DNA of 37,170 nt from a virus (taxonomy: Duplodnaviria > Caudoviricetes), in the IMG/VR virus record IMGVR_UViG_3300025723_002011, positions 1-37,170 of that record. One strand, given 5' to 3'. Below the pieces are notes generated by a model. The model was not told the DNA's origin. It searched no databases and saw nothing but the letters and a program-made list of their open reading frames with translations. The translations under genes were made by a program, and so were the position numbers. Positions 8-34,333 of the stretch are shown one piece after another (position 1 is the first letter of the stretch; each line of letters starts with the position of its first letter).

Positions 8-364
8 TTGGAGTCCACAGCAAAATTTTGGGCCAACGCTCCCATGATTGCTCATCATCACAAAGTGGATCCTTACGATTTCAAACATTGGCCCACTCCT
101 TGGGATATAATAGTGGAAAATCGCTATGATGACTTCACTCTGGCTTTGATGATTGGATACACTCTCAAGCTCAGCGAACCATTCAAAAATCACCAAATTG
201 AGGTTAGAACGATGGTTGATTATTCTAAAACAAAGTTATATAATTTAGTCTTTGTAAATGGCATAGATATTTTAAACTACACGCCAGGCGAGGTAGTTAA
301 TACCCAAGACATTGATCAAACGCTTTATCTGGAAAATATGGTTCAAGTCATTTTTCCAAGGTAA
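8..364 (+). CDS. Hypothetical phage protein, probably 5'-truncated by the window edge
   Basis: Open frame from the window start (TTG at 8) ending just before nrdA; no family recognised. Confidence 0.6.
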   Translation: MESTAKFWANAPMIAHHHKVDPYDFKHWPTPWDIIVENRYDDFTLALMIGYTLKLSEPFKNHQIEVRTMVDYSKTKLYNLVFVNGIDILNYTPGEVVNTQDIDQTLYLENMVQVIFPR

Positions 365-412
365 ATATCATCGCGTCAGTATAGTTTATTAAAATAATAA
401 AAGGTCGAAGTA

Positions 413-1357
413 ATGATCACAGTGGTTAAACGTAACGGAGAAAGAGTACCGTTAGACATTTCAAAAATCCAAAGACAGGTGGCGTATGATTGTAGAGGAA
501 TTGACAGCGTGAGTCCGTCAATGATTGAGATCAAAGCCCAGTTGGAACTGCATGATGGAATGAGTACCAAGACCATAGATGAATTGTTGCTCAAGGCCAT
601 GGTAAATTTAATTGACGAAAATGAAAACCCCGAGATCAACAACACCAATTATCAGTATGTGGCGGGCAGGCAAAGAGTCAGCATGCTGCGAAAAGAAGTT
701 TACGGAACCTACACACCTCCAAAACTTTTCTCAATTGTGAAAAAAAATATCGAACTTGGCATGTATACTCCTGCTCTTTTAGAATGGTATACCGAAGACG
801 AATGGAATATCATTGATCTTTTTATAGATCACAGCAAGGACGAAGATTATACCTATGCAGCTATCGCACAGCTGACAGAAAAATATCTAGTGCAAAATCG
901 TGCCACTGGTCAGGTTTTTGAAACTCCCCAAGTGCGATACGCTGTTGCAGCCGCCACAGCGTTCCATGCCGAGCCCAAAGATGCTAGATTGAAATTGGTC
1001 AAAGAATATTATGAATGTGCCAGCGACGGCCATTTTACCTTGGCCACTCCTGTGCTTGCCGGATTGGGAACCACTACCAAACAATTTTCCAGCTGCGTTT
1101 TAATCAGCAGTGACGATACTTTGGACAGCATCTTTGCAGCCGGCGAAATGATGGCCAAATATGCATCAAAACGAGCCGGAATTGGTCTGGAAATAGGCAG
1201 AATACGACCCTTAGGGGCGCCAATTCGCAATGGCGAGATCAAACATACAGGACTAGTGCCCTTTTTAAAGAAATGGTTCGCAGATCTACGTAGTTGTTGT
1301 GTAACTCCTGACACTTGGGTAGAAATTATAGACGAAGGAGATTCTGAGGATAAGTAA
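413..1357 (+). CDS. nrdA: Ribonucleotide reductase class Ia alpha subunit, N-terminal part (ATP cone), fused to a 19-aa N-intein
   Basis: ATP cone MITVVKRNG..; ETPQ, TLATPVLAG, QFSSCVLI, SKRAGIG, HTGLVPFLK motifs. RNR similarity stops at DLRSC and is followed by CVTPDTWVEIIDEGDSEDK*. Confidence 0.95.
   Translation: MITVVKRNGERVPLDISKIQRQVAYDCRGIDSVSPSMIEIKAQLELHDGMSTKTIDELLLKAMVNLIDENENPEINNTNYQYVAGRQRVSMLRKEVYGTYTPPKLFSIVKKNIELGMYTPALLEWYTEDEWNIIDLFIDHSKDEDYTYAAIAQLTEKYLVQNRATGQVFETPQVRYAVAAATAFHAEPKDARLKLVKEYYECASDGHFTLATPVLAGLGTTTKQFSSCVLISSDDTLDSIFAAGEMMAKYASKRAGIGLEIGRIRPLGAPIRNGEIKHTGLVPFLKKWFADLRSCCVTPDTWVEIIDEGDSEDK
1298..1354 (+). mobile_element. Split intein N-fragment (IntN, 19 aa)
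   Basis: CVTPDTWVEI matches intein block A (C-x-x-x-D-T-x-V) and ends in an acidic tail before the stop at 1355-1357. Confidence 0.88.
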
Positions 1358-1385
1358 TAGTTTTTCGCATACCAGCATAAATACT

Positions 1386-2495
1386 ATGGAGGTATGCGAA
1401 ATGCTAGATTATCTAAATGAATCATATAATGGATCAATAACAAATATGCTAACAAATTCTGCTTATTATTGTTATACTTTAAAAGACGCCAAAACTGGAA
1501 AGTTTTATTCGGGGTCTCGTGGAGTAGAAGGCAGCAATAAGCACGATTTGCTGGTAAAATATTTTACTAGTTCAACTGTAGTAGATTTTAAAGAAAAACT
1601 AAAAAAGTTCCCCTATACATTTGAATACCGAGTGGAATATTTTAAGACTAGGAGTGATGCCTTTGTCGCAGAAAAAGCGTTTCATCAAAAGCATCAAGTT
1701 GGTAGAAATCCTAGTTTTTTAAATTCTCTTACTGCCGGCGGAACAAACTGCGGAGCAGGTTCGGTTTTGTGTAAAGATATAGAAGGCAACACATATCGAG
1801 TGTCAGTAGAAGAATTTGCTACAGGAAACCATATGCATGTTTCAAAAGGCATGATGAACATTCGAACAGAATTAGGGATTAAAAAGATATTTACTACTGA
1901 CTTTGATCCTAATATTCACTCTACTGAATTTAAAGATTATGTCTTAGCATTGGATACTGTTACTGAGAAAACTTGTAGAATTCCAAAATCTGAGTTTGAT
2001 AGTGACAGCAGGTATGTAGGAATAACAAAAGGATTAGTAGTTGCGTATGACACCGTTACTAAATCAAGAGTATCTATTACCAAAGATAAATTTAAAAATT
2101 CAAATGGTAGATATGTAGGAAACACGTTTGGTCTAGTACCGGTAGTAGATAAGATCACCGGTGAACGGAAACTAGTGAAAAAAGAACACTACGATAAAAA
2201 GTTATATGAGCATCATAATACCGGGAATGTAGCAGTTTACTCAATTCCTAAAAGAAAAAATGTTACAATAAGCAAAGAAGAATATCAAACAAATTCGAAT
2301 GACTATGCTAATTTAGCCACTAAAGTTTTCTACAAAGTAGACGGTAAGTTTTTTAAGTCAAAAGATTTACTAGATCAATATTACAGAAAAACTAGAGGTA
2401 AAACAGTATTAAAGGTCAGCCAATTTGAAATGTCTACTAAGTTTAACGACATTGAAACAATAACAAAAGAAGATTATGAAAATAGTAAAAACTAA
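1386..2495 (+). CDS. Free-standing GIY-YIG/Seg-like homing endonuclease with a repeated C-terminal putative DNA-binding module (likely start ATG 1401)
   Basis: YYCYTLKD..KFYSGSR (GIY-YIG variant), YFTSS, AFVAEKAFHQ..FLN; degenerate ~30-aa repeats (DTVT..RYVG). GGAGG at 1388-1392 suits ATG 1401. Lies between the nrdA halves. Confidence 0.75.
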   Translation: MEVCEMLDYLNESYNGSITNMLTNSAYYCYTLKDAKTGKFYSGSRGVEGSNKHDLLVKYFTSSTVVDFKEKLKKFPYTFEYRVEYFKTRSDAFVAEKAFHQKHQVGRNPSFLNSLTAGGTNCGAGSVLCKDIEGNTYRVSVEEFATGNHMHVSKGMMNIRTELGIKKIFTTDFDPNIHSTEFKDYVLALDTVTEKTCRIPKSEFDSDSRYVGITKGLVVAYDTVTKSRVSITKDKFKNSNGRYVGNTFGLVPVVDKITGERKLVKKEHYDKKLYEHHNTGNVAVYSIPKRKNVTISKEEYQTNSNDYANLATKVFYKVDGKFFKSKDLLDQYYRKTRGKTVLKVSQFEMSTKFNDIETITKEDYENSKN

Positions 2496-2886
2496 AAAAA
2501 TTCAAATTAAAGACCTAGCAGTAGGTATGAAGATTAAGAGTAAAGACGAAACAGGCACGATTGTTTTTAAAACAATTACCAATAAATGGGAAACTGTTGT
2601 CAAACAAGAAGACCAAGTTCGATTGGAATTTGAAAATGGTGTAGTACTAAATTGTTCCGTAAATCATCCAATAATGTGCCTGGATCAGACGGGATCATTT
2701 GTTCAAAAATTACCAAAGACTATTAACACTGAAGATCGAGTATTAACCGAAGGAGGATTCACTAGGTTATTAACTGCTGACTTTGTGCAAGACAATGATG
2801 AAAATTATATCGATATCACGGTAGAAGATACTCACACATTTTTTGCATCTTCTAATAAAGAAGGCCCAATGGTTCTGACTCACAAT
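2476..2886 (+). mobile_element. Split intein C-fragment (IntC, 137 aa, no endonuclease domain)
   Basis: Basic N-terminus MKIVKTKKIQIKDL, block B CSVNHPI, block F YIDITVEDTHTFF, block G LTHN followed by Ser+1 (AGC 2887-2889). Confidence 0.9.
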
Positions 2887-4332
2887 AGCCAAGGTGGCAT
2901 ACGTAATGCCAGTTGCACTGTGACATTTCCAATTTGGCATGCTCAATTTGAAGATTTGATTGTGTTGAAAAACAATCAAGGAACCGAAGAAAACCGTGTG
3001 CGACAAATGGATTATTCAGTAGTGGTATCATCACTGTTTTGGCGCCGTTACAAAAACAATGAAAATATAACATTGTTTGATCCGCATGAGGTTCCTGATC
3101 TTTACGAGGCCTATTATAGAGACAGTAAGGAATTTGAGAAACTTTATCATTTTTACGAACAGGATAAGTTTGTCAAGAAGAAAGTGGTTTCTGCTGAAGA
3201 AATCTTTAAAAATGGAATACTCAAAGAACGAACAGATACTGGCAGGATTTATCTTGTCAATATTGACAATGTGATTAATCAAGGACCCTTTAATACCTTG
3301 ACTGATCCTATATATCAAAGTAATCTCTGCCAAGAAATCTTGTTGCCCACTCGTCCATTCCAACGTATTGAAGACGAAAACGGCAGGATCTCTCTTTGCA
3401 CTCTTGGATCAATCAATTGGGGAGCTTTTACCAGTCCTCAACAGATGCGCAAGGCCTGTCGAGTGCTGGTTCGTAGTTTGAGCAATCTTTTGAGCTATCA
3501 AGACTTTCTATCTGTGCAAAGCCAATTGGCCAATCAAGATTTTGAACCACTAGGAGTTGGCATCACCAATCTGGCCTATTGGCATGCACGCCGCAATCTC
3601 AAATATGGTGAATCATCTGCTCTCAAAGAAGTCAAACGATGGATGGAGCATCAGGCTTTTTATCTTACCGAAATCAGTGTGGAACTGGCACAGGAGCGAG
3701 GATCCTGCAAACGCAGTCAACATACCTATTACGGACAAGGAATATTTCCTTGGGAAAGGCGTAACCCAAATGTGGACGAACTTACCAATTTTGAACCCAG
3801 CGGCAATTTGGACTGGGAAAATTTGCGGGTTAACATGAAACAGTACGGCATACGCAATGCTACTCTAATGGCCATTGCTCCTGTAGAATCCAGTTCAGTA
3901 GTACTTAACAGTACCAATGGTATTGAAATGCCTATGGAATTGATCAGTGTCAAGGAAAGCAAAGCGGGCAGCTTTGTCCAGGTAGTGCCGGAATACAAAC
4001 GTCTAAAGAATAGATATCAATTGATGTGGAATCAAAAGGACTGTGTGGAATACTTGAAAACGGCTGCAGTGTTAGCTGCCTATATTGATCAAAGCATTTC
4101 TACCAATACCTTTTATTCTCCGGCACATTTCAAGGACGGTAAGATTCCAGGCACGCTGATCGCCAAAAATTTAATGTTGGCCTATCGTTGGGGGTTGAAA
4201 ACCATCTACTACAGTTTAATAAGTAAAACTGGCAGCAAGAATATTTTGAATACACACAGCGAAGTTACAAAGGTCATCGTTCCTATTAAATCAATCGAGG
4301 ATGAGGATTCATGCGAATCCTGTAAACTATAA
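2476..4332 (+). CDS. nrdA: C-intein (137 aa) fused to the C-terminal part of RNR class Ia alpha subunit
   Basis: After VLTHN the protein resumes SQGGIRNASCTVTFPIWH; catalytic SNLCQEI, LCTLGSIN, AIAPVESSS, KTIYY and C-terminal CESCKL are present. Confidence 0.95.
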   Translation: MKIVKTKKIQIKDLAVGMKIKSKDETGTIVFKTITNKWETVVKQEDQVRLEFENGVVLNCSVNHPIMCLDQTGSFVQKLPKTINTEDRVLTEGGFTRLLTADFVQDNDENYIDITVEDTHTFFASSNKEGPMVLTHNSQGGIRNASCTVTFPIWHAQFEDLIVLKNNQGTEENRVRQMDYSVVVSSLFWRRYKNNENITLFDPHEVPDLYEAYYRDSKEFEKLYHFYEQDKFVKKKVVSAEEIFKNGILKERTDTGRIYLVNIDNVINQGPFNTLTDPIYQSNLCQEILLPTRPFQRIEDENGRISLCTLGSINWGAFTSPQQMRKACRVLVRSLSNLLSYQDFLSVQSQLANQDFEPLGVGITNLAYWHARRNLKYGESSALKEVKRWMEHQAFYLTEISVELAQERGSCKRSQHTYYGQGIFPWERRNPNVDELTNFEPSGNLDWENLRVNMKQYGIRNATLMAIAPVESSSVVLNSTNGIEMPMELISVKESKAGSFVQVVPEYKRLKNRYQLMWNQKDCVEYLKTAAVLAAYIDQSISTNTFYSPAHFKDGKIPGTLIAKNLMLAYRWGLKTIYYSLISKTGSKNILNTHSEVTKVIVPIKSIEDEDSCESCKL

Positions 4333-4341
4333 GGATATAAC

Positions 4342-5436
4342 ATGAGTAAAGGTCAATACGATTTAACAAATAAAACCAATTACCTCAAGAGAAAAATGTT
4401 TCTTGACGGGGCAGTCACTGTTCAGCGATTTGAAGAATTTCGATTTCCCAAGATAGCCAAGTTCGAGGAGTTACAAAGAGGTTTTTTTTGGGTTCCTGAA
4501 GAAATCAGTCTTACCAAAGACAAGATGGATCATAAAGATGCCAGTGATGCAGTCAAACATATTTTTACCAGCAATCTCTTAAGACAAACTGCGTTAGATA
4601 GTATTCAAGGACGCGCTCCTTCGCAGATCTTTAGTCCAGTAGTTAGTGTTCCGGAAATGGAATCTCTTGTCAATGTGTGGAGTTTCTTTGAAACAAACAT
4701 ACACAGCAAGTCCTACAGTCATATCATACGCAATGTGTATGGCGTTCCCAAAGATGAGTTCAACAAAATACACGATACCAAAGAAATCATAGACATGGCG
4801 GCCAACATTGGTCGATATTATGAAGACCTGCATACTTTGAATTGTCGCAAAGAATTGGGAGAAAAGGTTTCTGTGCATGATCATAAACGAGCTATCTGGT
4901 TGGCACTAAACGCCAGCTATGCGCTGGAAGCGTTTAGATTCATGGTCAGTTTTGCTACCAGCCTGGCCATGGTAGAAAATAAAATCTATATCGGTAACGG
5001 CAACATCATCAGCTTGATATTGCAGGATGAATTGTTACACGCCGAATGGACTGCATGGATAATTAACAATGTAGGCAAGGATGATCCTGACTTTGTAAAA
5101 CTGGAACAGGAATGCCGTGACGAAGTTTATGCCATGTACATGGAAGTGATCAAGGAAGAAAAAAGTTGGGCCGATTATCTTTTTAAAAAGGGCGTGGTAA
5201 TTGGACTCAATTCCAATATCCTCAAGGACTTTGTGGATTGGACCGCCTTTACCAGATTGAAGGATATTGGAATCAAATATTTGGAAGAATATCCCAAGTC
5301 AAATCCTATACCTTGGTTCAATAAACATACTCAAATCAATAAAAAACAGAGTGCTTTACAAGAAACTGAATCAACCAATTATGTAGTAGGGGCTATGAGT
5401 TCTGATATTAATTACCATGAACTACCGGATCTCTAA
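4342..5436 (+). CDS. nrdB: Ribonucleotide reductase class Ia beta subunit
   Basis: FFWVPEEISL, LDSIQGR, ETNIHSKSY (radical Tyr), EAFRFMVSF, DELLH, ALQETESTNY. Confidence 0.96.
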   Translation: MSKGQYDLTNKTNYLKRKMFLDGAVTVQRFEEFRFPKIAKFEELQRGFFWVPEEISLTKDKMDHKDASDAVKHIFTSNLLRQTALDSIQGRAPSQIFSPVVSVPEMESLVNVWSFFETNIHSKSYSHIIRNVYGVPKDEFNKIHDTKEIIDMAANIGRYYEDLHTLNCRKELGEKVSVHDHKRAIWLALNASYALEAFRFMVSFATSLAMVENKIYIGNGNIISLILQDELLHAEWTAWIINNVGKDDPDFVKLEQECRDEVYAMYMEVIKEEKSWADYLFKKGVVIGLNSNILKDFVDWTAFTRLKDIGIKYLEEYPKSNPIPWFNKHTQINKKQSALQETESTNYVVGAMSSDINYHELPDL

Positions 5437-5446
5437 AGGAAAAATA

Positions 5447-5671
5447 ATGAAAGTGATAATTTGGAGCAAAAGTAATTGCAGCTATTGCGAACAGGCAAAA
5501 AGTCTATTAGAAATCAAAGGCATTGAATTTGAGGAAAGAAAGATTGGAGATGGGTATAGCAAGGAAGATCTTTTAGAACAAGTGCCTACGGCACGGTCAG
5601 TTCCTCAAATCTTTATCAACGAAGAGCTGATTGGCGGCTACACAGAACTTAAGTATTTTTTAGCAGATTAA
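5447..5671 (+). CDS. Glutaredoxin
   Basis: CSYC active site, RSVPQIFI..IGGY; start at ATG 5447 after AAGGA. Confidence 0.92.
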   Translation: MKVIIWSKSNCSYCEQAKSLLEIKGIEFEERKIGDGYSKEDLLEQVPTARSVPQIFINEELIGGYTELKYFLAD

Positions 5672-7974: not shown

Positions 7975-8260
7975 AATGGTAGTAAACTCTTAGCTAAAAG
8001 CGTTTTGGACGCAACTCATAAACGACGTAAACATTGAACTAAAATCAGTTTGGACCGGGGTTCGATTCCCCGATGCTCCACCAACTATGGGGCATATCGG
8101 TTTCGACAGGCTGCGTAATACACTCAATGCGTCCGAAAGGTGACTGACGTAATCAGCACAAAAAAAAGTAAATGCAAACGATAGCAATTACCACATGGCA
8201 CTAGCCGCCTAATAACGGTGTAGTTTTCCAGAGTTAACCGCTTGGTAACAGAAAGGTTAG
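7975..8260 (+). ncRNA. ssrA: Circularly permuted (two-piece) tmRNA, tag (A)ANDSNYHMALAA; outer ends approximate
   Basis: T-arm CGGGG-TTCGATT-CCCCG (8056-8072) and ATGCTCC-A-CCA (8073-8083) precede the 5' acceptor strand GGGGCAT (8089-8095), giving a 7-bp stem with G3.U; tag frame 8174-8212 ends LAA*. Confidence 0.93.
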
Positions 8261-8289
8261 TAATAGGAGCTTCGGCTCCTATTATTTTT
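8261..8289 (+). terminator. Rho-independent terminator
   Basis: TAATAGGAGC-TTCG-GCTCCTATTA followed by a T run. Confidence 0.9.
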
Positions 8290-8297
8290 ATTTTTCA

Positions 8298-8334
8298 ATA
8301 GACATTGCCTATTGCTGCAATAGAATCAAAGTAT
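8298..8334 (+). promoter_or_regulatory. OxyR-type binding site upstream of ahpC
   Basis: ATAG-acattgc-CTAT-tgctgca-ATAG-aatcaaa-GTAT: one mismatch to ATAG-N7-CTAT-N7-ATAG-N7-CTAT. Confidence 0.75.
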
Positions 8335-8440: not shown

Positions 8441-8986
8441 ATGAAAACAGTAGGAGATACGTTAGAAGCGTTTGAGATTGTTGGAGTCAAACCGGGACAG
8501 CCGGATGATGCTTTCTTTACCATCGACCAAAACAGTTTTGCAGGCAAGTGGAAGGTGATTGTTTACTACCCGAAGGACTTTACCTTTGTTTGCCCTTCAG
8601 AGATCGTGGCCTACGACAAACTAAATCAGGATTTTGCCGATCGCGATGCAGTGCTGCTCACCGGCAGTACCGATAATGAATTCTGCAAGGTGGCTTGGCA
8701 GAAGGCTCATCCAGATTTGGCCAAGATTACCCATACACAGTTTGCAGATACCGCGCGGGACGAACGCAGCCTTATCAATCAATTGGGCGCGTTCTATGCT
8801 CCTGCTGGCGCCGCTCTGCGTGCCACATTTGTCGTTGATCCCAACAATGTTATTCAGCATGTCACTGTCAACAACTTGGATGTGGGTCGAAATCCTGAAG
8901 AAACACTTCGTGTATTGGATTCCTGCCAAACGGGAGAACTTTGTGCATGTAATCGTGCCATTGGCGGCCAAACACTGTCGGTATAA
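8441..8986 (+). CDS. ahpC: Peroxiredoxin (alkyl hydroperoxide reductase C)
   Basis: YPKDFTFVCPSEI peroxidatic motif, VGRNPEETLRVLD, ELCAC resolving region. Confidence 0.95.
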   Translation: MKTVGDTLEAFEIVGVKPGQPDDAFFTIDQNSFAGKWKVIVYYPKDFTFVCPSEIVAYDKLNQDFADRDAVLLTGSTDNEFCKVAWQKAHPDLAKITHTQFADTARDERSLINQLGAFYAPAGAALRATFVVDPNNVIQHVTVNNLDVGRNPEETLRVLDSCQTGELCACNRAIGGQTLSV

Positions 8987-8997
8987 GGAGAAACGTC

Positions 8998-9504
8998 ATG
9001 AGTTTTATTGAAACAGTCAAGAATTCTTTGCCGGATTACGCCAAAGACATCAGGCTCAATCTCGATGCGGTGTTGCTGAGAAGCACACTGACGCCTGAAG
9101 TGGCCATGGGCTGTGCAGTAGCAGCTTTGGCCGCTGCCGGCAATGGCAAAGTATTGTCGGCCCTGTTGAGCGATGACCCGATTCATGCCGATGCTGCCAT
9201 GACGGCTGCCAGTTTAATGGCAATGACCAATACCTGGTATCCCTACGTGGAAATGACCAATGATCCGCAACTGTCAGGACTTCCTGCACAGTTGCGCATG
9301 AACTCCATTGTCACGCACGGGGGCACCAGCAAGGCCAACTTTGAGGCATTTAGCCTAGCAGCCAGCATTGTGGGCAAATGTCATTTTTGCGTCAAGGCGC
9401 ACTATGACACACTGCGAGCAGAAGGATACACTGTGGAACAGCTTCGTGACGTTGGACGAATCGCTGCTGTCATGAACAGTGTGGCCAAAGTGTTGGTGGG
9501 CTAG
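8998..9504 (+). CDS. ahpD: Alkylhydroperoxidase AhpD
   Basis: LPDYAKDIRLNL, MAMTNTWY, SIVGKCHFCVKAH (CxxC..H); directly follows ahpC. Confidence 0.93.
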   Translation: MSFIETVKNSLPDYAKDIRLNLDAVLLRSTLTPEVAMGCAVAALAAAGNGKVLSALLSDDPIHADAAMTAASLMAMTNTWYPYVEMTNDPQLSGLPAQLRMNSIVTHGGTSKANFEAFSLAASIVGKCHFCVKAHYDTLRAEGYTVEQLRDVGRIAAVMNSVAKVLVG

Positions 9505-9718
9505 GGTCGTGCAAGGCATAAATTCCTTACAGGATCTCAAAACTCGTTTAGAAATTGCAGGATTTGAAATCATGGACTACTCAGGGTGGTATTTAAACAC
9601 CGCCCATGGTCGTTGGACCATGCTGTTTGGTCAGGTTTATTTGAACAACGTGGTCATCAATCACATGCATGATGCTCCTGTGATCAAGAAGCGGAAAACC
9701 AGGAAACTACAATCCTAG
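9479..9718 (+). CDS. Hypothetical protein (true start probably GTG near 9509)
   Basis: ORF filling the gap after ahpD; no recognised motif. Confidence 0.5.
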   Translation: MWPKCWWARVVQGINSLQDLKTRLEIAGFEIMDYSGWYLNTAHGRWTMLFGQVYLNNVVINHMHDAPVIKKRKTRKLQS

Positions 9719-9731
9719 ATCCTGATTCTGC

Positions 9732-9760
9732 TTGACTTTGAGATAAAAGAGATATATAAT
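9732..9760 (+). promoter_or_regulatory. sigma70-type promoter
   Basis: TTGACT-N17-TATAAT. Confidence 0.75.
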
Positions 9761-9811
9761 AGTACAAGCTATATAAACTATAGCGTTTTTAAAAATAAAG
9801 AGGTAATTTAA

Positions 9812-10264
9812 ATGAAGAAGTTAATTCTAGCAACAATGTTGGCAACTGCAATGGGCACTGCATCCGCTGTTGAACTGGGCGTAAATGCCGGTTTCAACAC
9901 TTCGGGACCTGGTGCTGTTTCCTACGGCGTTACTGTGGGTGAGAAGATGGGCGCTGTTGGCGTTACCGGCGGGTATGATCGTGACAATCGTACCACTCGA
10001 GTAGGCAATCGCTACAGTGTGGTGGCTTCCTATGATCTCGTGAACGTGGGCAACGTGACCCTGGTTCCCAAGGTTGGCGGAGCTTATCTTGACAATGAGG
10101 CTGTGGCAACCAACGGTTATGCTGTGCTTGCCGGTGTGGGCGCCGAAGTTGTTTTGGTCAAGCATGTGGTAGCCACTGCCGACTATCGTTATCAGTTTGG
10201 CCAGGATCGCGTCAAGGATCTAAATGGCAATCAGCTGTTTGCTGGTGTCAAGGTCAAGTTTTAA
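9812..10264 (+). CDS. Small outer-membrane beta-barrel protein (OmpA/Ail/Lom-like)
   Basis: Signal peptide ending ASA, alternating beta-strand pattern, C-terminal beta signal ..AGVKVKF. Confidence 0.85.
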   Translation: MKKLILATMLATAMGTASAVELGVNAGFNTSGPGAVSYGVTVGEKMGAVGVTGGYDRDNRTTRVGNRYSVVASYDLVNVGNVTLVPKVGGAYLDNEAVATNGYAVLAGVGAEVVLVKHVVATADYRYQFGQDRVKDLNGNQLFAGVKVKF

Positions 10265-10285
10265 TCAATCGTTAAAACTATCAAT

Positions 10286-10313
10286 AAAAAGGCTACCTAG
10301 GTAGCCTTTTTTT
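10286..10313 (+). terminator. Rho-independent terminator, potentially bidirectional
   Basis: AAAAAGGCTAC-CTAG-GTAGCCTTTTTTT. Confidence 0.88.
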
Positions 10314-10360
10314 ATGAACGCCGTAATACTAATGCAATAGTTTTCTGCTTAAATATAGGT

Positions 10361-11230
10361 ATGAAAAAAACTTATCGTAGTATTTTTATTAGTGATATAC
10401 ATCTTGGAACTCTTGATTGCAAAGCCGAAGAACTAGACCATTTCCTCAAAAATAACACATGCGAAACTTTGTATCTAGTGGGTGATATAATTGATGCATG
10501 GCGTATACAACAAAATAAATGGCGGTGGAAACAGAGTCATACCAATGTGGTCAAAAGAATATTGCAACACAGCAAGCACCATACAAGAATAGTGTACGTG
10601 GCTGGTAATCATGATGAATTTTTGAGACCCATGATTCCATATGGGCTAAGTTTTGGCAGGATCGAGGTTGTAAATCAAACTGAACACATGGGTCTAGATG
10701 GCTATCGCTACCTTGTTACTCACGGTGATTTATTTGATGGTATTACTAAATTGGCTCCTTGGATTTCCTTCCTGGGAGATAAAGCATATGATTATATATT
10801 ACGTCTCAATTCCAAGTTTAATTGGTTACGTAGAAAGATGGGGTTTGGTTACTGGTCTTTAAGTAAGTTCTTAAAACATCGAGTCAAAAAGGCGGTAGAT
10901 TTTATGTTTAGATTTGAAAACAATCTAGCTGACTATTGCAAGAAGAGAGGATTTGACGGAGTGATTTGTGGTCATATACATAATCCTGAAATAAAACGAG
11001 TTGAAAATATTTGGTATTTAAATGATGGTGATTTTGTAGAAAGTCTTTCTGGATTAATTGAAACTCACGACGGGGATTGGGTTCTTATTCATTTAGAAGA
11101 AAATGAATGGCGTCCTTTCCAAGTATTAGATCGCCAGACTGATCAAATACTAACAGGAGAACTTTGTGTCCGTTGGTTTGAGAAGAAAGGATTTTCTGTT
11201 TTACTATATCAAAATCCCGGCTCAAAGTGA
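10361..11230 (+). CDS. Calcineurin-like metallophosphoesterase, LpxH/UDP-2,3-diacylglucosamine hydrolase-like
   Basis: SDIHLG, LVGDIID, GNHD, HGDLFD, CGHIH, YLNDGDFVES; the last ~45 aa overlap the opposite-strand gene. Confidence 0.85.
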   Translation: MKKTYRSIFISDIHLGTLDCKAEELDHFLKNNTCETLYLVGDIIDAWRIQQNKWRWKQSHTNVVKRILQHSKHHTRIVYVAGNHDEFLRPMIPYGLSFGRIEVVNQTEHMGLDGYRYLVTHGDLFDGITKLAPWISFLGDKAYDYILRLNSKFNWLRRKMGFGYWSLSKFLKHRVKKAVDFMFRFENNLADYCKKRGFDGVICGHIHNPEIKRVENIWYLNDGDFVESLSGLIETHDGDWVLIHLEENEWRPFQVLDRQTDQILTGELCVRWFEKKGFSVLLYQNPGSK

Positions 11231-12056
11231 ATAAACTTTTAATTTCTACAACTAAATTATCGTCAGGAACAAAGAAATCACAATAGTATCTACGAGTTTT
11301 TCCTTGCCATTCATACCATAGTTCTGGCATATCTTTTTTACGATATTTTATTTGATTTTCTAGAAACTTGGTCTTTAAATAATCAAATCCATACGGTTCA
11401 TACCCTTGTAGATATATGATTTCACCGTTAGATAAAACGTATTTTTTTCTTTTCTTGAATCTATTGTAGCAAAGTTTTTCAGCTATTTCCGGTATATGAA
11501 CAGGATTATATACTCCATATTTTGCAAATTGTTTTTCTTGCCATCCGATAAAATTATGTTCTATACCGTATTTTTTTAACATGGTATCAACTCTTTTTTG
11601 TTTTACTTGATCGTTACTACTAGGATTTTCTACTCCGTACTTTTCTAAAAAATGTTTTTTCCTTTTTTCCATTACTCCGGGTATATACATTGAATTAGTA
11701 ATATCTTTGCCATATTTTTCTACAAGAGATTTCCTTTGAATATCAACATTTCCTTTTCCTGCAACTTTATGATTGGCAAACATGCTATATCCTTCGCTCA
11801 TGCCCGGAATATCTATTTTTTCAATAGCATCGCCGGCTCTCCATTTCCTTTCTAGTCCTGAAATAGGACATAATGGAATAATGTTGGTATCTTTCCAATA
11901 ATGCCATAATTTTCTTTGCAGATTCCATTCCTCTGGTAAATTCATTTGATTAAATTTATTTTCCAATTGATTAAACCATGGAGCTTTATGTAAACTGAAG
12001 ATTAATTTCTTTTTTAACGATGATTCTTTCAAGTATTTTAAAATTTTTTTCTTCAT
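11085..12056 (-). CDS. Putative PD-(D/E)xK homing-type endonuclease with KYG repeats
   Basis: Repeated EKYG/KKYG(V/I) units, LQGYEPY, YYCDFFVPDDNLVVEIKS; very AT-rich and inverted relative to its neighbours. Confidence 0.75.
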   Translation of the reverse strand: MKKKILKYLKESSLKKKLIFSLHKAPWFNQLENKFNQMNLPEEWNLQRKLWHYWKDTNIIPLCPISGLERKWRAGDAIEKIDIPGMSEGYSMFANHKVAGKGNVDIQRKSLVEKYGKDITNSMYIPGVMEKRKKHFLEKYGVENPSSNDQVKQKRVDTMLKKYGIEHNFIGWQEKQFAKYGVYNPVHIPEIAEKLCYNRFKKRKKYVLSNGEIIYLQGYEPYGFDYLKTKFLENQIKYRKKDMPELWYEWQGKTRRYYCDFFVPDDNLVVEIKSLFTLSRDFDIVKQKILSSQTNGHKVLLLVFDQSGDLILGKDAIHFLLNE

Positions 12057-12184
12057 AACTTTATTTATTTAAATAGCGGAGAAACTATTTTAATTTAAGT
12101 TGTCATATAAATCACATTATAAAATGTTTAAATATATTTGAAATCAAATATCAACTGTGTTTAACTTACGGACAGACAAATCAA

Positions 12185-13066
12185 ATGACAATGCTAATAC
12201 TTTCAAAACAGGATCGAGACGAACATGAAACAGAACGATTGGTAGAAAGTTTTACCAATCAAGGATGTGTCGTTAAAGTTTGTAACCCCAATGATTTTGA
12301 TCTAATCGTTGATGGAGATTTGACCAAGGGTGTGAATTATCAAGGCGAAAGGATAGAATTACCCCAGATGGTATTGGTCAGGATGGGGGCAGGAATAACC
12401 CCTTTTCAATTGGCTGTTATCCGGCATCTGGAGCAATCCGGAGTTACCTGCATCAATAGCAGTAACTCCATTGAAATCGTAAAAGATAAACTGCGTACCA
12501 GTCAGATTCTAAGCAGGAACAAAATTGCAATTCCCAATACCATGATGGTTCGTTTTCCAATTGATCAATTTTTAGTTGCCAACAACATTGGGTTTCCGTG
12601 CGTGGTCAAAGTGGTTACTGGCAGCTATGGTGAAGGCGTTTATCTTTGTGAAAAAGAAAAAGATTTTAAGAAACTCATGGAATTGATTGATAATCTGGGT
12701 GGAAAGAAATCAATCCTGGTACAGGAATATATGGGTGAGCGTCCAGGCGAAGATTTAAGAGTGTTGGTCATTGGCGGCAAAGTGATAGGTGCTATGAAAC
12801 GCACAGCCCCGGAAGGTGATTTCCGAGCCAATATCAGCAGTGGCGGAACAGGATGCCCATATCCAGTGACTGAAGAAATTGAGACTATGGCCTTGAGCAC
12901 AGCTGGATGTCTTGGCCTAGAGATAGCAGGAATTGATTTGCTTTTTGACAAGGCGGGATTCCGTGTGTGCGAGGCCAATTCAAATCCGGGATTTAAGGGA
13001 TTTGAAACCTATTGTGAAATTGATGTAGCAGATAAAATCGCAAGGTATGTAAGAAGCAAAACATAA
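12185..13066 (+). CDS. rimK: RimK-family ATP-grasp ligase
   Basis: DKLRTSQIL, GSYGEGV, LVQEY, DLRVLVIGGKV, DFRANISSGG, AGIDLL, EANSNPGF. Confidence 0.85.
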   Translation: MTMLILSKQDRDEHETERLVESFTNQGCVVKVCNPNDFDLIVDGDLTKGVNYQGERIELPQMVLVRMGAGITPFQLAVIRHLEQSGVTCINSSNSIEIVKDKLRTSQILSRNKIAIPNTMMVRFPIDQFLVANNIGFPCVVKVVTGSYGEGVYLCEKEKDFKKLMELIDNLGGKKSILVQEYMGERPGEDLRVLVIGGKVIGAMKRTAPEGDFRANISSGGTGCPYPVTEEIETMALSTAGCLGLEIAGIDLLFDKAGFRVCEANSNPGFKGFETYCEIDVADKIARYVRSKT

Positions 13067-13101
13067 CGGTTTACAGAATATTACAACTAGAGGATACGGT
13101 A

Positions 13102-13242
13102 ATGAATACAAATAAATTTATAAAAACTAAGACCTGTATCGAAAAGAATAACAACAAATTATTCCAGAAAAGTTTTGTCAAGAATTTTAAAAGACAGCGT
13201 ACCGGTAAACCATTTACCACTAGATGGACCACAATTAGATAA
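13102..13242 (+). CDS. Small basic hypothetical protein (46 aa)
   Basis: GAGGA upstream; MNTNKFIKTK..TTIR*, read by hand. Confidence 0.35.
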   Translation: MNTNKFIKTKTCIEKNNNKLFQKSFVKNFKRQRTGKPFTTRWTTIR

Positions 13243-13247
13243 CCCAG

Positions 13248-13276
13248 TTGACATATCAACTCTAAACTTGTATTAT
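13248..13276 (+). promoter_or_regulatory. sigma70-type promoter
   Basis: TTGACA-N17-TATTAT. Confidence 0.75.
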
Positions 13277-13297
13277 ATACAAAGTAAGGAATAAGAT

Positions 13298-13483
13298 ATG
13301 TCAGCAGGAACTACTGCTAATGCGCTTTTTAGGTCTTACAACGCTTTCGCAAATGCTACTGGATTTTGGAAAAACAGTGAATCCCTATGTTGCCGATGCC
13401 GAAAGTGGGTTGAATCATGTATCTTGGTCAACCGAATTGTACGGCAGCTGGCTTCCTTTACTCTTACGAATAATTTAATTTAA
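13298..13483 (+). CDS. Hypothetical protein
   Basis: AAGGA RBS directly after a promoter; no recognised motif. Confidence 0.35.
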   Translation: MSAGTTANALFRSYNAFANATGFWKNSESLCCRCRKWVESCILVNRIVRQLASFTLTNNLI

Positions 13484-13512
13484 TGATCGGCTTTTCACGA
13501 GGGCACATTTAA

Positions 13513-13911
13513 ATGAGCATGCATCTAGTTGGACCATGGCTTTCTACCACAGGTAAGAAAAAAGGCAAAAAGAAATGGGCATCTGCCGAACACAAGCGTC
13601 GTGCTGAATTGGCACAGCAGCAGCAGCAGGCTCTCTATCAAGCCCATGGCATCGCAGCAAAGAAGGCCAAGCCTGCTGCAAACAATCGCACAGCTCTTGT
13701 TGGCTTGGCCAACAACAATACCCGCTATCAAGATCACATCAAACAGGAAGTGGTCAGTCATGAACCCACATGGGCGGTCTGTGCCAAACCACACACTCCT
13801 CGATATACAGGAACACGCATCATTGGCATAGCTGTCCTACATAAGTCTTGTTTGCAGCCGGTGTCTTCACAAAAAGAAGCAGAGGAAATTTCTAAAATGA
13901 GGAGGAACTAG
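13513..13911 (+). CDS. Basic hypothetical phage protein
   Basis: MSMHLVGPWLSTTGKKK..YTGTRIIGIAVLHKS..; plausible gene of unknown function. Confidence 0.75.
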   Translation: MSMHLVGPWLSTTGKKKGKKKWASAEHKRRAELAQQQQQALYQAHGIAAKKAKPAANNRTALVGLANNNTRYQDHIKQEVVSHEPTWAVCAKPHTPRYTGTRIIGIAVLHKSCLQPVSSQKEAEEISKMRRN

Positions 13912-13986
13912 GTTTTTTGCATTTATCAAAATGAAAGTCGCGGTTAGTTTTTAACAAACAGTTGTTAGATAACAATAAATAATTTC

Positions 13987-15003
13987 ATGAATAACTCATT
14001 AACTAACAAAATCATAGCCTATCTTACTCTTTTAAGTGGGCTTTCTATCTCTGCAGTTGCGGTGTATTATTCAGTGGCTGGTCTAACAGCTATATTTTCT
14101 GCGGCTGCCATTCCAATTATTATTATGGGCGTGGCATTGGAAATCAGTAAACTGATAGCCACAGTTTGGCTCAAACAAAATTGGAAAATAGCTCCCCTCA
14201 CAATTAAATCCTATCTTGTTGCTGCTGTTGTAGTACTCATGTTGATTACCAGCATGGGTATTTTTGGTTTTTTGAGTCGCGCACATAGCGATCAAAGTTT
14301 GGTAAGCGGCGATGTGTCTGCAAAAATTGCAGTCTATGATGAAAAAATTGCTGTTGAAAAAGAAAATATTGAAACCAATCGAAAAGCATTACAACAACTG
14401 GACGCTGGTGTTGACCAGCTTATGAGTAGGTCATCTGATGCACACGGTGCTGATCGCGCTGTTTTTTTAAGAAAATCACAGTCAAAGGAGCGTGCCAGAT
14501 TATACGAAGAAATCTCAAAATCACAAAGCACTATCTCTAAATTAAATGAAGATCGAGCACCCATAGCTGCGGAATCACGCAAAGTCGAGGCCGAAGTAGG
14601 ACCAATTAAATATATTGCAGCTTTTTTTTATGGCAGTACAGATCAAACTGTGCTAGAAAAAGCTGTGGTGTGGGTAATTTTGGCATTAATTTTAGTTTTT
14701 GATCCTTTGGCAATCATAATGCTGCTGGCAAGCCAACACAGTTTTTTAATGATGTCAGAGGCATACAATGCCACATCATCAACTGATCATGAGACGCCAG
14801 TGGCCGATAATCAAGACACATCGATTACCAACAATAAAGTATCAACATATGTTCAAAATGAAGAACAGCTCGATAGCGGAAAATGGAAGAATATAAGCAA
14901 AATTATTTCTGAAAAAGAATACCAAGAAGCATCTAGAGAAAAAATTAAAGAAATGGAAGATCGTTTGAAAGCGTCACACAACGAGCCCAACAATGCCGGC
15001 TAA
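13987..15003 (+). CDS. Membrane protein with a central coiled coil
   Basis: Three N-terminal hydrophobic helices, a coiled coil, EVGPIKYIA, then another TM segment (VFDPLA). Confidence 0.8.
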   Translation: MNNSLTNKIIAYLTLLSGLSISAVAVYYSVAGLTAIFSAAAIPIIIMGVALEISKLIATVWLKQNWKIAPLTIKSYLVAAVVVLMLITSMGIFGFLSRAHSDQSLVSGDVSAKIAVYDEKIAVEKENIETNRKALQQLDAGVDQLMSRSSDAHGADRAVFLRKSQSKERARLYEEISKSQSTISKLNEDRAPIAAESRKVEAEVGPIKYIAAFFYGSTDQTVLEKAVVWVILALILVFDPLAIIMLLASQHSFLMMSEAYNATSSTDHETPVADNQDTSITNNKVSTYVQNEEQLDSGKWKNISKIISEKEYQEASREKIKEMEDRLKASHNEPNNAG

Positions 15004-15382
15004 CATAACACTGGTAACTCCGCCGGACATTTACCAAAACGATCAAGAAAGCATTTTGTTTTTTGACCTAACTGAAAAAGAACAAGATGATGTAATACAT
15101 TGGTTAAAAAACATTGATTTGAGTATCAATATTTATTTTTATCAAGGAGAGCCAAATGTTGCTTGGGTATTGCATTCATTGTCTAGTGCCAATTTTAAAT
15201 ATTGTAACCTGAACAATATGTCAGCTGTAACAAGTTATCTGGCTGGCTATATTTTATCAAAATCAAATGTCTTTTACAGCACCAACGATGTAAATGTTGC
15301 TGAACTATATAGCCATATTAATCTTAATAGAGTTACTGACGCCGTTGATTTTTTAGAAAGGATTTTTAGTGGAAAAGAATAA
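14993..15382 (+). CDS. Hypothetical protein
   Basis: Overlaps both neighbours in an operon-like arrangement. Confidence 0.7.
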   Translation: MPANITLVTPPDIYQNDQESILFFDLTEKEQDDVIHWLKNIDLSINIYFYQGEPNVAWVLHSLSSANFKYCNLNNMSAVTSYLAGYILSKSNVFYSTNDVNVAELYSHINLNRVTDAVDFLERIFSGKE

Positions 15383-16610
15383 AACACATGCCTGTGACTT
15401 TTGCGGTAAATCAAAAGAGGATGTTGGCAAGTTAATTGTTGGCGATACCTCTGCAATTTGTAATGATTGCATTGAACTTTGCGTGAGCATATTAGAAGAA
15501 GAAAAAATTAAAAAATTCTCACCCGATGATGGAACTGCTGTACTCAACCCGGCCAAGATCAAAGAATACTTGGATGAGTATGTGATTGGTCAAGAATATG
15601 CAAAAATGGTTTTAAGCGTGGCAGTGTGCCAACACTTTAAGCGTATTTCTAATCCCAGCAAAGATATACAACTAGAAAAAACCAATGTGCTTATGTTGGG
15701 ACCAACCGGCTGCGGAAAAACCATGCTGGCAAAAAAATTAGCAGATTATCTAGATGTACCGTTTGCCATTTGTGATGCTACCAGTATTACCGAAGCAGGC
15801 TACGTGGGCGATGATGTGGAAAGTGTACTTAATCGATTGATGTCAGTGGCCGATGGTGACCTTGAAAAAGTAAAAAACGGCATTATTTACATTGACGAAA
15901 TTGACAAGCTCAGTCGCAAAGGGGAAAGCACCAGTTTAACTAGAGATGTAGGCGGCGAGGGTGTGCAGCAGGGTTTATTGAAAATGATCGAAGGCACTGT
16001 GGTACGTGTGCCCACTTCGGGAAAGAGAAAACATCCCCGAGGGGATATGGCCGAAATTGATACCAGCAGCATACTGTTTATCTGCGGTGGCGCCTTTGTT
16101 GGTCTAGACAAAATTATAAGCAAAAGATTAGGATCTACATCAACATCCGTGGGCTTCAATGCTGTTGTTACTTCAAGCAAGAAAGAAGATAAAAACTGGG
16201 ACAAGACTGAAACTAAAGATCTTGTCACATACGGAATGATTCCCGAGTTTGTTGGCAGATTTGGTCTAATCACTCATGTAGAAGAATTGGTTGTGTCAGA
16301 TTTGGTAAGAATACTCAAAGAACCCAAAAACAGTTTGATATTGCAGTATAAATACCTCTTTAATTTGGACGGCATTGAGATAGACTTTGACCAAGATGCA
16401 CTTACAGCCATCGCGGAAAAAGCTAAAAATATGAAAACAAATGCGCGTGGGCTAAAAAATATCCTAGAAAAAATACTGTTACCTTATCAATTTGATGCAG
16501 TGGATTTGGTTGAACGAGGATTAACCAAACTAGTGATAAGTAAAGACACAGTGGACGGTGGGCCCGCGACATTGATTTTTAACAAAAATAAAGTAGAAAA
16601 AATATCATGA
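15369..16610 (+). CDS. clpX: ATP-dependent Clp protease ATP-binding subunit ClpX
   Basis: Zn domain CDFC..CNDC, Walker A GPTGCGKT, GYVG pore loop, IDEIDK, RDVGGEGVQQGLLK, RKH loop, VGF (IGF-like) loop; GTG start. Confidence 0.96.
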   Translation: MEKNKTHACDFCGKSKEDVGKLIVGDTSAICNDCIELCVSILEEEKIKKFSPDDGTAVLNPAKIKEYLDEYVIGQEYAKMVLSVAVCQHFKRISNPSKDIQLEKTNVLMLGPTGCGKTMLAKKLADYLDVPFAICDATSITEAGYVGDDVESVLNRLMSVADGDLEKVKNGIIYIDEIDKLSRKGESTSLTRDVGGEGVQQGLLKMIEGTVVRVPTSGKRKHPRGDMAEIDTSSILFICGGAFVGLDKIISKRLGSTSTSVGFNAVVTSSKKEDKNWDKTETKDLVTYGMIPEFVGRFGLITHVEELVVSDLVRILKEPKNSLILQYKYLFNLDGIEIDFDQDALTAIAEKAKNMKTNARGLKNILEKILLPYQFDAVDLVERGLTKLVISKDTVDGGPATLIFNKNKVEKIS

Positions 16611-22484: not shown

Positions 22485-22787
22485 ATGACCGACGTTGAGG
22501 TAAAGAAAAAAGACAGTGTAAAAAATCGTATCAAAGAACCCAAAAAATACAAGGTAGTTGTGCTCAATGACGATTATACTCCCATGGATTTTGTGGTGGC
22601 TATATTGATGCAGATTTTTAGACATTCCGAATCTCAAGCCATGTCTTTGACCTTGCAGATTCACAACGAAGGTTCTGCTGTAGCTGGAATTTACAACTAC
22701 GAAATAGCAGAACAAAAAGGAATTGAAGCCACTGGTGTAGCTAGAGAAAATGGTCATCCTTTGCAAATCAAGGTGGAATCAGAATGA
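22485..22787 (+). CDS. clpS: ATP-dependent Clp protease adaptor ClpS
   Basis: YKVVVLNDDYTPMDFVV, IHNEGSAVAGIY, EIAEQK, HPL. Confidence 0.95.
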   Translation: MTDVEVKKKDSVKNRIKEPKKYKVVVLNDDYTPMDFVVAILMQIFRHSESQAMSLTLQIHNEGSAVAGIYNYEIAEQKGIEATGVARENGHPLQIKVESE

Positions 22788-23323
22788 GTTTGAAAGATTT
22801 AACCAAAGACAGCCATACTGCCGCAGAAAAAACCAAATTTATGAAAGCGGCATTTCAAGGTCGCATGACTCAATCGATATGGGCCGATTGGACTTATCAA
22901 AAAACATTATTTTATAATGCCATAGAAAGTTCTGCTAGCGCGGTAAATTTATTATTAGGAATGAATGAGTTAAAGAGAACATTCCTATTGTTGGAAGATT
23001 ATAAAGTCATGGCAAAGGCCGAAACGGCCACCTATTACAAAAAAAGTGTTATCGAATATTATCAATATATCATGAATCTATACCCTGACAAGTCACGTAT
23101 CATGGCACATTTATATACATGGCATATGGGTGATTTGCACGGCGGTCAGATGATTAAAAAGATTTTACCATTCAGTCATCTCAGTTTGGAATTTACTCGG
23201 CCGGAAGAATTAAAAATAGCCATTAGAGAAAAACTCAATGACACCATGGCAGACGAAGCTAATACAGCATTTAAATGGGCAATCAAGATGATGGAAGAAT
23301 ATGACAACCAGTTTGATATTTGA
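22784..23323 (+). CDS. Heme oxygenase (biliverdin-producing)
   Basis: LKDLTKDSHTAAE (proximal His), AHLYTWHMGDLHGGQMIKK, EANTAF. Confidence 0.9.
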   Translation: MSLKDLTKDSHTAAEKTKFMKAAFQGRMTQSIWADWTYQKTLFYNAIESSASAVNLLLGMNELKRTFLLLEDYKVMAKAETATYYKKSVIEYYQYIMNLYPDKSRIMAHLYTWHMGDLHGGQMIKKILPFSHLSLEFTRPEELKIAIREKLNDTMADEANTAFKWAIKMMEEYDNQFDI

Positions 23324-23975
23324 TAAAGTAGAAAATTTTTCAAACGAGTTGCTGGCGCGTCTCAATTCCACAGGCATAAGATTGGATCACAATGATCAAA
23401 GATTTCCCTGGAATGATTTGGTTTTCATAGGCGACAATTATCGTAGAGCGCATCTCAATATCGTAGATGCCAGAGAAGAAAAAAATCTTCTAATGATGCA
23501 CTGTTGTATTTTTCCGCACATAAACGACCCCAGCCCCATATTTGGATTAGACATCATCGCGGGACCTAGCAGGATCAGTGGAGCGTTCCATGATTTTTCC
23601 AGCGCTGGCAATCCGGATCATTTTATGATCAAATGGTTTGATCAACGAGCAACTGACTTGAACTGGAAAAAACCTAGACAGCTTCCGGATTGGGCTCTAA
23701 AAATTTTTAGTCCTGCCATGATAGCTGCCGGAGCCATGAATAGTGAAACAGAAATAAATCAACTTATCTCAGTGTCTTTGATTAATTTAGAATATTATCT
23801 AGATAATGTAGGAGCCACCATGCGACCTGGTAAGAACTATACAGCAGAACAGAATCGCTATTGCCACTATCAAAAACAAAATCCTCATAATCCTAGAGTG
23901 ATGCAGAGCCTAGGACTCAGCGAAGATGATGCACTCAGTTATGTTGAGGAAGTGATGTTTCCGGAAATACGTTAA
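23301..23975 (+). CDS. Ferredoxin-dependent bilin reductase (PcyA/PcyX-like)
   Basis: RRAHL, MMHCCIFP, PIFGLDIIAG, GAFHDFS, RQLPDWA..IFS, YCHYQKQNPH; coupled to the heme oxygenase. Confidence 0.88.
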   Translation: MTTSLIFDKVENFSNELLARLNSTGIRLDHNDQRFPWNDLVFIGDNYRRAHLNIVDAREEKNLLMMHCCIFPHINDPSPIFGLDIIAGPSRISGAFHDFSSAGNPDHFMIKWFDQRATDLNWKKPRQLPDWALKIFSPAMIAAGAMNSETEINQLISVSLINLEYYLDNVGATMRPGKNYTAEQNRYCHYQKQNPHNPRVMQSLGLSEDDALSYVEEVMFPEIR

Positions 23976-27144: not shown

Positions 27145-27230
27145 TATTTGATATATCTGCCATTTCCGGGGTCGTGCAACATGTTTACTGTGCTGCAAGT
27201 ACGGAGTATTATTAAAAGATTTCTAAACAT
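27144..27230 (-). pseudogene. 28-aa mini-ORF, possibly a truncated gene remnant
   Basis: MFRNLLIILRTCSTVNMLHDPGNGRYIK*; starts just after the upstream stop and is TAATG-coupled to the next gene. Confidence 0.4.
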
Positions 27231-27236
27231 TGTTTA

Positions 27237-28178: not shown

Positions 28179-28253
28179 TACTGATCCTTTTTTTAATTTT
28201 TAATCCCGATCTATACTGTTCAGTTTGGAATGAACCCTATATGACTCATTCCA

Positions 28254-30741: not shown

Positions 30742-30750
30742 AGGATTAAC

Positions 30751-31455: not shown

Positions 31456-31546
31456 TTGCAAAACTTATAAAAAGACATACAAATATAATATATTTAAGAA
31501 CAACAACTAAATTAAATCCACATAGCTAATTTATGAGTATATATCA

Positions 31547-32972: not shown

Positions 32973-32990
32973 AACAAATAAAGGACAATA

Positions 32991-34305: not shown

Positions 34306-34333
34306 AACATGTCAATCAATAAAAAGAAAAAAA

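Follow-up and report, generated by a model that had tools for sequence, protein, structure and literature searches.

We find that nrdA, a ribonucleotide reductase (RNR) gene, is split at the specificity loop of its protein in the virus record IMGVR_UViG_3300025723_002011, and that the interruption is a cassette that combines a two-part intein with the gene for a predicted GIY-YIG homing endonuclease. The pieces of NrdA are likely translated apart and likely trans-spliced into one chain. This reading, which we hold very probable, comes from sequence comparison and modeling across the whole stretch of DNA analyzed, a linear virus record of 37,170 bases that is about 10% complete (hereafter the window). 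The element is a fractured gene and also an S1-type atypically split intein, in which an N-terminal fragment (IntN) of about 15-37 residues, here 19, stands on a separate gene and the break falls after strand 2. Both are known kinds of element, found here in a host gene and at a site for which the literature covered gives no short IntN. Most of the window was recovered in metagenome runs from freshwater, and bacteriophage proteins are the nearest to its NrdA (Xanthomonas phage X1, 65%; Ralstonia phage RSP15, 58%).

The open reading frames (ORFs) follow one another on the same strand in the order 413-1357, 1401-2495, 2476-4332, nrdB and glutaredoxin, and the features within them are these:

413..1297, + strand: NrdA N-extein, 295 residues (ATP cone, all-alpha domain, barrel start, FSSC motif), ending DLRSC (Cys-1); Pfam PF03477, PF00317, PF02867; E. 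coli NrdA 6-292
1298..1357, + strand: IntN, 19 residues plus stop, Cys1; residues 1-11 structured (strands 1-2), 12-19 an acidic tail; from sequence, conservation, the model of an unsplit relative and dN/dS
1358..1406, + strand: RNA hairpin over the endonuclease ribosome-binding site and start codon; from folding energy and covariation
1401..2495, + strand: predicted free-standing GIY-YIG (Seg-like) homing endonuclease, 364 residues; from structure model, Foldseek and Atlas
2476..2886, + strand: C-terminal intein fragment (IntC), 137 residues, with a basic head, block B S61-x-N63-H64, block F D113/H120 and block G T135-H136-N137; from conservation, TIGR01443 and dN/dS
2887..4332, + strand: NrdA C-extein, 481 residues, Ser+1 (SQGGIRN) first, with NLCQE, SLCTL, IYYS and C-terminal CESC motifs; PF02867, E 5.5e-92; E. 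coli NrdA from 293
1262..2921, + strand: extent of the mobile cassette, comprising IntN, endonuclease, IntC and nrdA flanks of about 36 and 35 nucleotides; from matches at 98% in contigs of runs X16, X17 and X20
4342..5436, + strand: nrdB, small subunit, intact; NF006576, E 1.2e-93
5417..5671, + strand: glutaredoxin; PF00462

The first-pass annotation had placed nrdA in two ORFs with a 19-residue IntN and a 137-residue IntC, and had claimed that splicing would restore RSC-SQGG; both claims held. The first ORF (314 residues) ends FADLRSC-CVTPDTWVEIIDEGDSEDK, with IntN at nucleotides 1298-1354 and two stop codons behind it, and the first 137 residues of the last ORF (618 residues) end THN before SQGGIRNASC. 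Alignment of the two ORFs to intact NrdA places residues 3-296 of the first ORF on 6-293 of E. coli NrdA (2r1r) and residues 135-581 of the second on 290-733, so that the exteins meet between C292 and S293. We take this site to be the specificity loop (loop 2) of NrdA. Removal of the intein restores a conserved host protein, as the uninterrupted NrdA of phage X1 has FSDMRSCSQGGIRNSS at the junction (SCSQGGIRN) and cassette-free alleles likewise read SC-SQGG. The FSSC, NLCQE, SLCTL, YY and CxxC motifs, whose roles in the enzyme we assume, are every one present, and the two redox cysteines would sit on different NrdA pieces.

IntC searches returned 42 viral loci, then 59 metagenome and 63 viral loci with alignments (overlapping sets), 18 GenBank phage records, and 196 protein clusters at E ≤ 1e-8; L104, L105, L169 and L170, partial or unrelated, were left out of the counts. 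The 167 loci kept, among them the window and three from GenBank, represent 60 distinct IntC sequences, 39 of them split, 18 contiguous and 3 cut off upstream. In 185,579 genomes of bacteria and archaea, a scan confined to exact short patterns turned up only 2 weak, unrelated-looking matches. Because a single contig of run X3 covers 763-3478 with 0 differences to the window, and because the layout recurs in 39 of the 60 family members, the layout is not an assembly error. A dead or mis-assembled nrdA, with the phage dependent on the enzyme of its host, is extremely unlikely: nrdA is not necessarily essential to a phage and some relatives do carry eroded endonuclease genes, but the same layout on one contig from a separate run, the complete active-site motifs, the purifying selection described below and the same split in the cultured Acinetobacter phage KARL-1 all argue against decay.

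The residues expected of a class 1 intein are in place: C1, S61-x-x-H64 (with Ser replacing the usual Thr), D113, H136-N137 and Ser+1, where we take the IntC residues to fall in blocks B, F and G. Cys1, Pro4 and Glu9 are invariant in 21 of 21 aligned IntN sequences, as are S61, N63, H64, D113, H120, T135, H136 and N137 in 28 of 28 aligned IntC sequences, and position +1 is taken by Ser in 56 of the 60 distinct members and by Cys in the other 4. Class 3 inteins are marked by a Trp-Cys-Thr triplet whose Cys stands at position 4 of block F; we rejected this class, as the window has Asp at that position and no Trp after the block B His. A profile search of both parts, which the first-pass annotation had proposed, bore out the intein assignment for one model, TIGR01443 intein_Cterm, which IntC matches above the cut-off (17.8 versus 15.6 bits), and not for Pfam PT-HINT and Intein_splicing, whose matches lie below theirs.

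Evidence for the Hint fold comes from a model of a natural unsplit relative, L003 (IntC about 85-86% identical to that of the window), rather than from the IntN/IntC pair of the window itself. The model reaches a predicted local confidence (pLDDT) of 94 and has 59 Protein Data Bank (PDB) matches at E ≤ 0.001, of which every one listed is a Hint or intein domain at 13-22% identity, with the VidaL structure 6vgv at 17%; the best match to profiles of solved inteins has E 4e-4. The strands of the L003 model at residue 2 and residues 7-11 are followed by a poorly ordered acidic loop and a next strand at 22-26, and the low-confidence stretch of that loop, residues 16-18, is the position of the break in the window. 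From these strand positions, the window intein is split after strand 2, at the S1 site. The ratio of nonsynonymous to synonymous substitution rates (dN/dS), taken over 78 pairs from 13 loci that are not independent of one another, stands at 0.03 in codons 1-11 of IntN, 0.13 in its tail, 0.09 in IntC and 0.16 in the middle gene, while synonymous change in the N-extein was saturated and gave no ratio. Both intein halves are thus under purifying selection. The earlier claim of an atypically split Cys1/Ser+1 intein that would need protein trans-splicing is supported as the best reading by the invariant catalytic residues, the Hint fold of the unsplit relative, this selection and the lack of an intron signal.

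Charge pairing between the halves, as initially described, survives in a restricted form: IntN carries a net charge of -6 and the first 12 IntC residues +5 (+6 over the first 22), whereas IntC as a whole carries -3, so the pairing is local. In 38 pairs of the family the net charge of IntN lies between -1 and -8 and that of the 22-residue IntC head between -1 and +8, with a whole-IntC mean of -3.9, and the pairing is weak in KARL-1. Such tails admit another explanation, in which the NrdA pieces assemble without splicing and the intein-like parts are charged docking tails, as described for the split NrdA of phage Aeh1 in the accessible text of Crona et al. (2011, PMC3045599), a precedent in the same gene. 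We regard this as very unlikely, although 6 of the 39 split relatives have, further down, a second, non-intein break of Aeh1 appearance. All splicing residues are invariant and under purifying selection, 18 contiguous forms of the same intein exist that must splice, and 156 additional residues would otherwise remain in the middle of the specificity loop, whose role we assume here.

The reading of separate translation followed by trans-splicing also has to be set against removal or skipping of the middle region at the RNA level, by a self-splicing intron or a ribosome bypass, which would yield a single precursor carrying an ordinary cis intein. Phage RNR genes often contain introns with endonucleases, according to the available part of PMC3653736, and the ribosome-binding signal at the window IntC start is close to nil (-0.2 kcal/mol), but the probability of such an event is, in our estimate, minimal. 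An Rfam scan of 300-5600 returned no intron match at E ≤ 1, its single hit being a chance match at E 0.34, so that no group I or II core structure was found between the exons in that search. The gap from IntN stop to IntC start ranges from 18 to 2734 nucleotides and falls in all three frames (21, 15 and 3 loci), and the IntN tails stop at 12-25 residues. All 39 split members have an in-frame start codon (37 ATG) 130-137 codons ahead of the IntC end, the range to which the script was confined; 107 of the 120 protein clusters listed (of 196) start at IntC; and the ribosome-binding energy upstream of the IntC start beats the locus's own coding control in 31 of the 39. The start codon is kept even where it has moved, as in the window, where it lies two codons upstream: relatives read ACG AAA ATG and the window ATG AAA ATA, so the shift is compensated, and L050 has both ATGs.

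Between the two halves lies an ORF that the first-pass annotation had left out along with its hairpin. This ORF, whose last 20 nucleotides overlap the IntC start, is predicted from modeling to encode a GIY-YIG homing endonuclease, which makes the locus a fractured gene in the sense published in 2009. It has 101 homologues, and its model (pLDDT 92, predicted template modeling score 0.57) comprises an N-terminal alpha/beta nuclease domain followed by about six hairpin-helix repeats of 30 residues. The best Foldseek match of this model in BFVD is a GIY-YIG protein (E 6e-16), most of the named matches are homing endonucleases, and Atlas places the ORF with SegE_GIY-YIG clusters at 0.94. All 57 sequences compared share C24-Y25, Y36-S37-G38, E91 and N108, and we take the last two to correspond to the catalytic residues of I-TevI. 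We preferred the start at 1401 to one at 1386 on ribosome-binding energy (-10.6 versus +1.2 kcal/mol).

The start of this ORF is covered by a hairpin, with a main stem of 1363-1373 paired with 1391-1401, that takes in the GGAGG at 1388-1392 and the ATG (-24.2 kcal/mol, z -5.9, 0 of 200 shuffles). In an alignment of 15 of the 27 listed spacers (3 duplicates and 9 dissimilar ones left out), 93% of cells are paired and 4 of 14 pairs have two-sided changes, a level seen in 3 of 500 shuffles, with slid controls at 30-54%. Inside the hairpin lies CATAAATA (1376-1383), which resembles a T4 late promoter and is one base off TATAAATA; ATAAATA occurs in the loop of 13 of the 15 loci and the exact 8-mer in 2 of 15. 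Late-promoter-like 8-mers are at chance level in the window (9 found, 9.15 expected), so the element is backed solely by its conserved position.

The cassette is also seen in other phages. Contigs of X16 and X17, from one study, and of X20, from another, match exactly 1262-2921 at 98% and drop off on both sides; on the 5158-nucleotide X17 contig the flanks have no alignment at 80% among the matches listed, and in X20 the 30 bases shown after 2921 are about 70% identical to the window. Cassette-free C-S-Q-G-G alleles are present in X3, X16, X17, X20 and X24. The window IntC is nearest to L003 (85%; extein 73%) and the window exteins are nearest to L036 (86%; IntC 53%), and the N-extein tree, which takes in 54 of the 60 rows, rejects the 27 rows of the main intein clade as one group (approximately unbiased test, p-AU 5.6e-41). 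Judged from these comparisons, the cassette moves between nrdA alleles, and the sharp borders and tree conflict are indirect signs of a putative cut in the cassette-free allele.

The cargo of the cassette also differs among the 39 split loci, with a middle gene of the window's GIY-YIG type in 22, another GIY-YIG-like gene in 5, a large DUF7487 type in 6, an HNH gene in 1, remnants in 2 and none in 3. The large DUF7487-bearing genes have weak Vsr- or PD-(D/E)XK-like matches, and in L008 and L019 only the final bases of the endonuclease gene are left before the IntC start. This distribution indicates that the endonuclease is swapped or lost over time. In P0146, P0154 and P0119 endonuclease sequence (HNH type, DUF7487 type and a remnant) stands in frame with the IntC start, as a real fusion or a frameshift error. 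A further DUF7487 protein with PHROG homing-endonuclease matches is encoded elsewhere in the window (11085-12056, - strand), overlapping the end of a metallophosphoesterase gene on the other strand (10361-11230).

In some lineages the split halves appear to have re-fused into a contiguous intein. On the IntC tree, at least 15 changes between the contiguous and the split state occur. Neither the 18 contiguous forms (p-AU 7.5e-35) nor the 27 non-contiguous main-clade rows (p 0.006, for a grouping chosen once the tree was known) hold as a clade. Signs that suggest re-fusion come from P0159, a single contig in which 42 residues of the endonuclease C-terminus lie in frame inside a contiguous intein, from a Met kept at the IntC start position in 5 of the 18 contiguous forms, and from L098 (split) and L165 (contiguous), whose flanks are 99.8-100% identical. 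Alternatively, the same pattern might arise by repeated independent splitting at a pre-existing Met.

Family-wide, IntN ranges from 12 to 25 residues, and L039, L043 and L093 have one of 13. The shortest, 12 residues, is that of KARL-1, a cultured phage with the split form (L044:2588-2623, 3504-3893) and Cys+1; in KARL-1 and Thanatos-2 the intein site lies one residue upstream of that in the window, between S and C. The accessible parts of PMC10189870 and PMC13014065 give 15 residues as the shortest IntN, so the 12-13 residues found here lie below that published value. Cultured phages Thanatos-1 and -2, VPALA and SUMAE carry contiguous loop-2 inteins that, like the split one of KARL-1, belong to the same family (39-47% identical to the window IntC); the three of these records examined, KARL-1 included, have no intein annotation. 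A further intein site lies eight residues downstream, between RGG and S, in L040-L042 and L172 (Campylobacter phage IBB_35, where an intein is annotated), and L040 has two inteins 8 residues apart. Added to the C/S and S/C sites, this makes three nearby intein sites in loop 2. Distant IntC-like matches (28-31%) also occur in the GenBank Vibrio phages K453-K461, within genes annotated as DNA helicase.

Beyond the loop-2 break, NrdA is plain in 14 of the 39 split loci; 8 carry a second split intein of the usual type at the thiyl cysteine, 6 have a second break that involves no intein, 7 are unclear and 4 cut off. In the 8 loci with two inteins (L008, L026, L030, L035, L063, L076, L087 and L099) NrdA lies in three ORFs, and by their sequence a single chain would take two trans-splicing events. 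In L005, L010, L022, L039, L057 and L062 the second break immediately precedes the second redox cysteine; the tails there are charged and do not look like an intein, and an endonuclease gene is often present. The contiguous loci L004, L034, L091 and L101 show the same Aeh1-like break.

The closest published precedents are the fractured genes with a split intein and a free-standing endonuclease (NrdA-1 to -7, gp41-1 and terminase) of Dassa et al. (2009, PMC2677866). As far as the accessible text of that paper goes, the window shares with them three same-strand ORFs in the order extein-IntN, GIY-YIG endonuclease and IntC-extein, a short spacer, a hairpin over the endonuclease ribosome-binding site and a TATAAATA-like late-promoter element; the overlap of the endonuclease 3' end with the IntC start is 20 nucleotides in the window and 6-69 in that set, and endonuclease-free derivatives exist in both cases. 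In contrast, the NrdA inteins of 2009 sit at the thiyl cysteine and are split in the usual way (IntN 88-105 and IntC 33-54 residues), only the terminase intein of that set is split early, and no SQGG-site intein is given in the text or readable supplement of PMC2677866, one supplementary file of which is not searchable.

By its split, the intein resembles VidaL (IntN of 16 residues) and PolB16 (15 residues), which combine a short IntN and a long IntC with a break right after strand 2 (accessible parts of PMC13014065 and PMC10189870); it differs in host gene, is unrelated to them in sequence, and has Cys1/Ser+1 where PolB16 has Ser1/Ser+1. The first-pass annotation had likened the intein to AceL-TerL; the short IntN remains a common feature, and AceL-TerL was rejected as the closest type, since the accessible text of PMC13014065 lists AceL TerL and GOS TerL at the S2 site and VidaL and PolB16 at S1, where the window intein is split. 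The Aeh1 NrdA, broken by insertion of mobE, is likewise a phage class Ia nrdA cut by an endonuclease gene, with an RNA structure blocking endonuclease translation and oppositely charged tails; unlike the window NrdA, it has no intein, assembles non-covalently, and is broken between the thiyl cysteine and the second redox cysteine rather than in loop 2 (accessible text of PMC3045599). No short-IntN intein in RNR or at this site was found in the literature covered, which lies outside subscription papers, patents and intein registries, and the available supplement of PMC7090010 has no match for the IntN start.

We envision the following sequence of events. The 19-residue IntN would bring strands 1-2 and Cys1 and dock into the 137-residue IntC, helped by its acidic tail and the basic IntC head. 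Cys1 would then form the thioester, Ser+1 would take it over and Asn137 would cyclize, to give RSC-SQGG. On long operon transcripts the hairpin would keep the endonuclease untranslated, and late transcripts beginning inside the hairpin would express it. In mixed infections the endonuclease may cut cassette-free nrdA near the C/S junction, and repair would copy the entire cassette with about 35 nucleotides of flank on each side. Over time the endonuclease would be swapped, eroded or lost, and some lineages may re-fuse the halves into one contiguous intein.

Several observations weigh against this account, among them the weak ribosome-binding signal at the window IntC start and the sub-threshold Pfam matches already mentioned. 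The proposed mechanism has the endonuclease gene repressed while IntC, which overlaps it, is translated. The middle ORF has no match in sequence searches of Pfam, PHROG or the PDB, and a PDB structure search with its model gave the I-TevI catalytic domain at a probability of 0.72 and a non-significant E of 0.5. The window holds no excess of the late-promoter-like 8-mer. Identities of the exteins and of IntC still correlate overall (Spearman 0.69); the trees, quick ones under LG+G4 from 131 and 214 columns, have long branches and give no direction of cis/split change, and P0159 rests on one contig.

Other parts of the window hold features that lie apart from nrdA. At 7991-8303 this phage record has a permuted, two-piece type transfer-messenger RNA gene with the tag ANDSNYHMALAA, and three late-promoter-like 8-mers stand just upstream of it (7745, 7786 and 7962). 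A heme oxygenase gene adjoins one for a ferredoxin-dependent bilin reductase (22784-23975), and host-like genes at 8441-16610 and 25774-36953 include those for AhpC, a CMD-family protein, RimK and ClpX together with a block of sugar-nucleotide, glycosyltransferase and methyltransferase genes.

Taken as a whole, and with confidence only slightly better than even, we propose that the window belongs to a widespread phage family of S1-split inteins in the RNR specificity loop that homes as a whole split cassette, trades and loses endonucleases and re-fuses, completing a full cis-to-split-to-cis cycle, and that includes the shortest natural IntN so far (12 residues, KARL-1) and three-chain NrdAs joined by two different split inteins. 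Few natural split inteins have an IntN that is short enough to be made by peptide synthesis (AceL TerL, GOS TerL, VidaL and PolB16, in the accessible sources), and these are used for protein labeling. The family adds a sequence-distant set of at least 39 natural split pairs for consensus design, with Ser at +1 of the junction and IntN as short as 12-13 residues. The gene-breaking model of 2009, its reverse step included, becomes testable within one family through the near-identical alleles in split and contiguous form, the remnants of endonuclease genes and the leftovers in frame. The loci with two split inteins, if the reading is true, would be a natural case of three-piece protein ligation.

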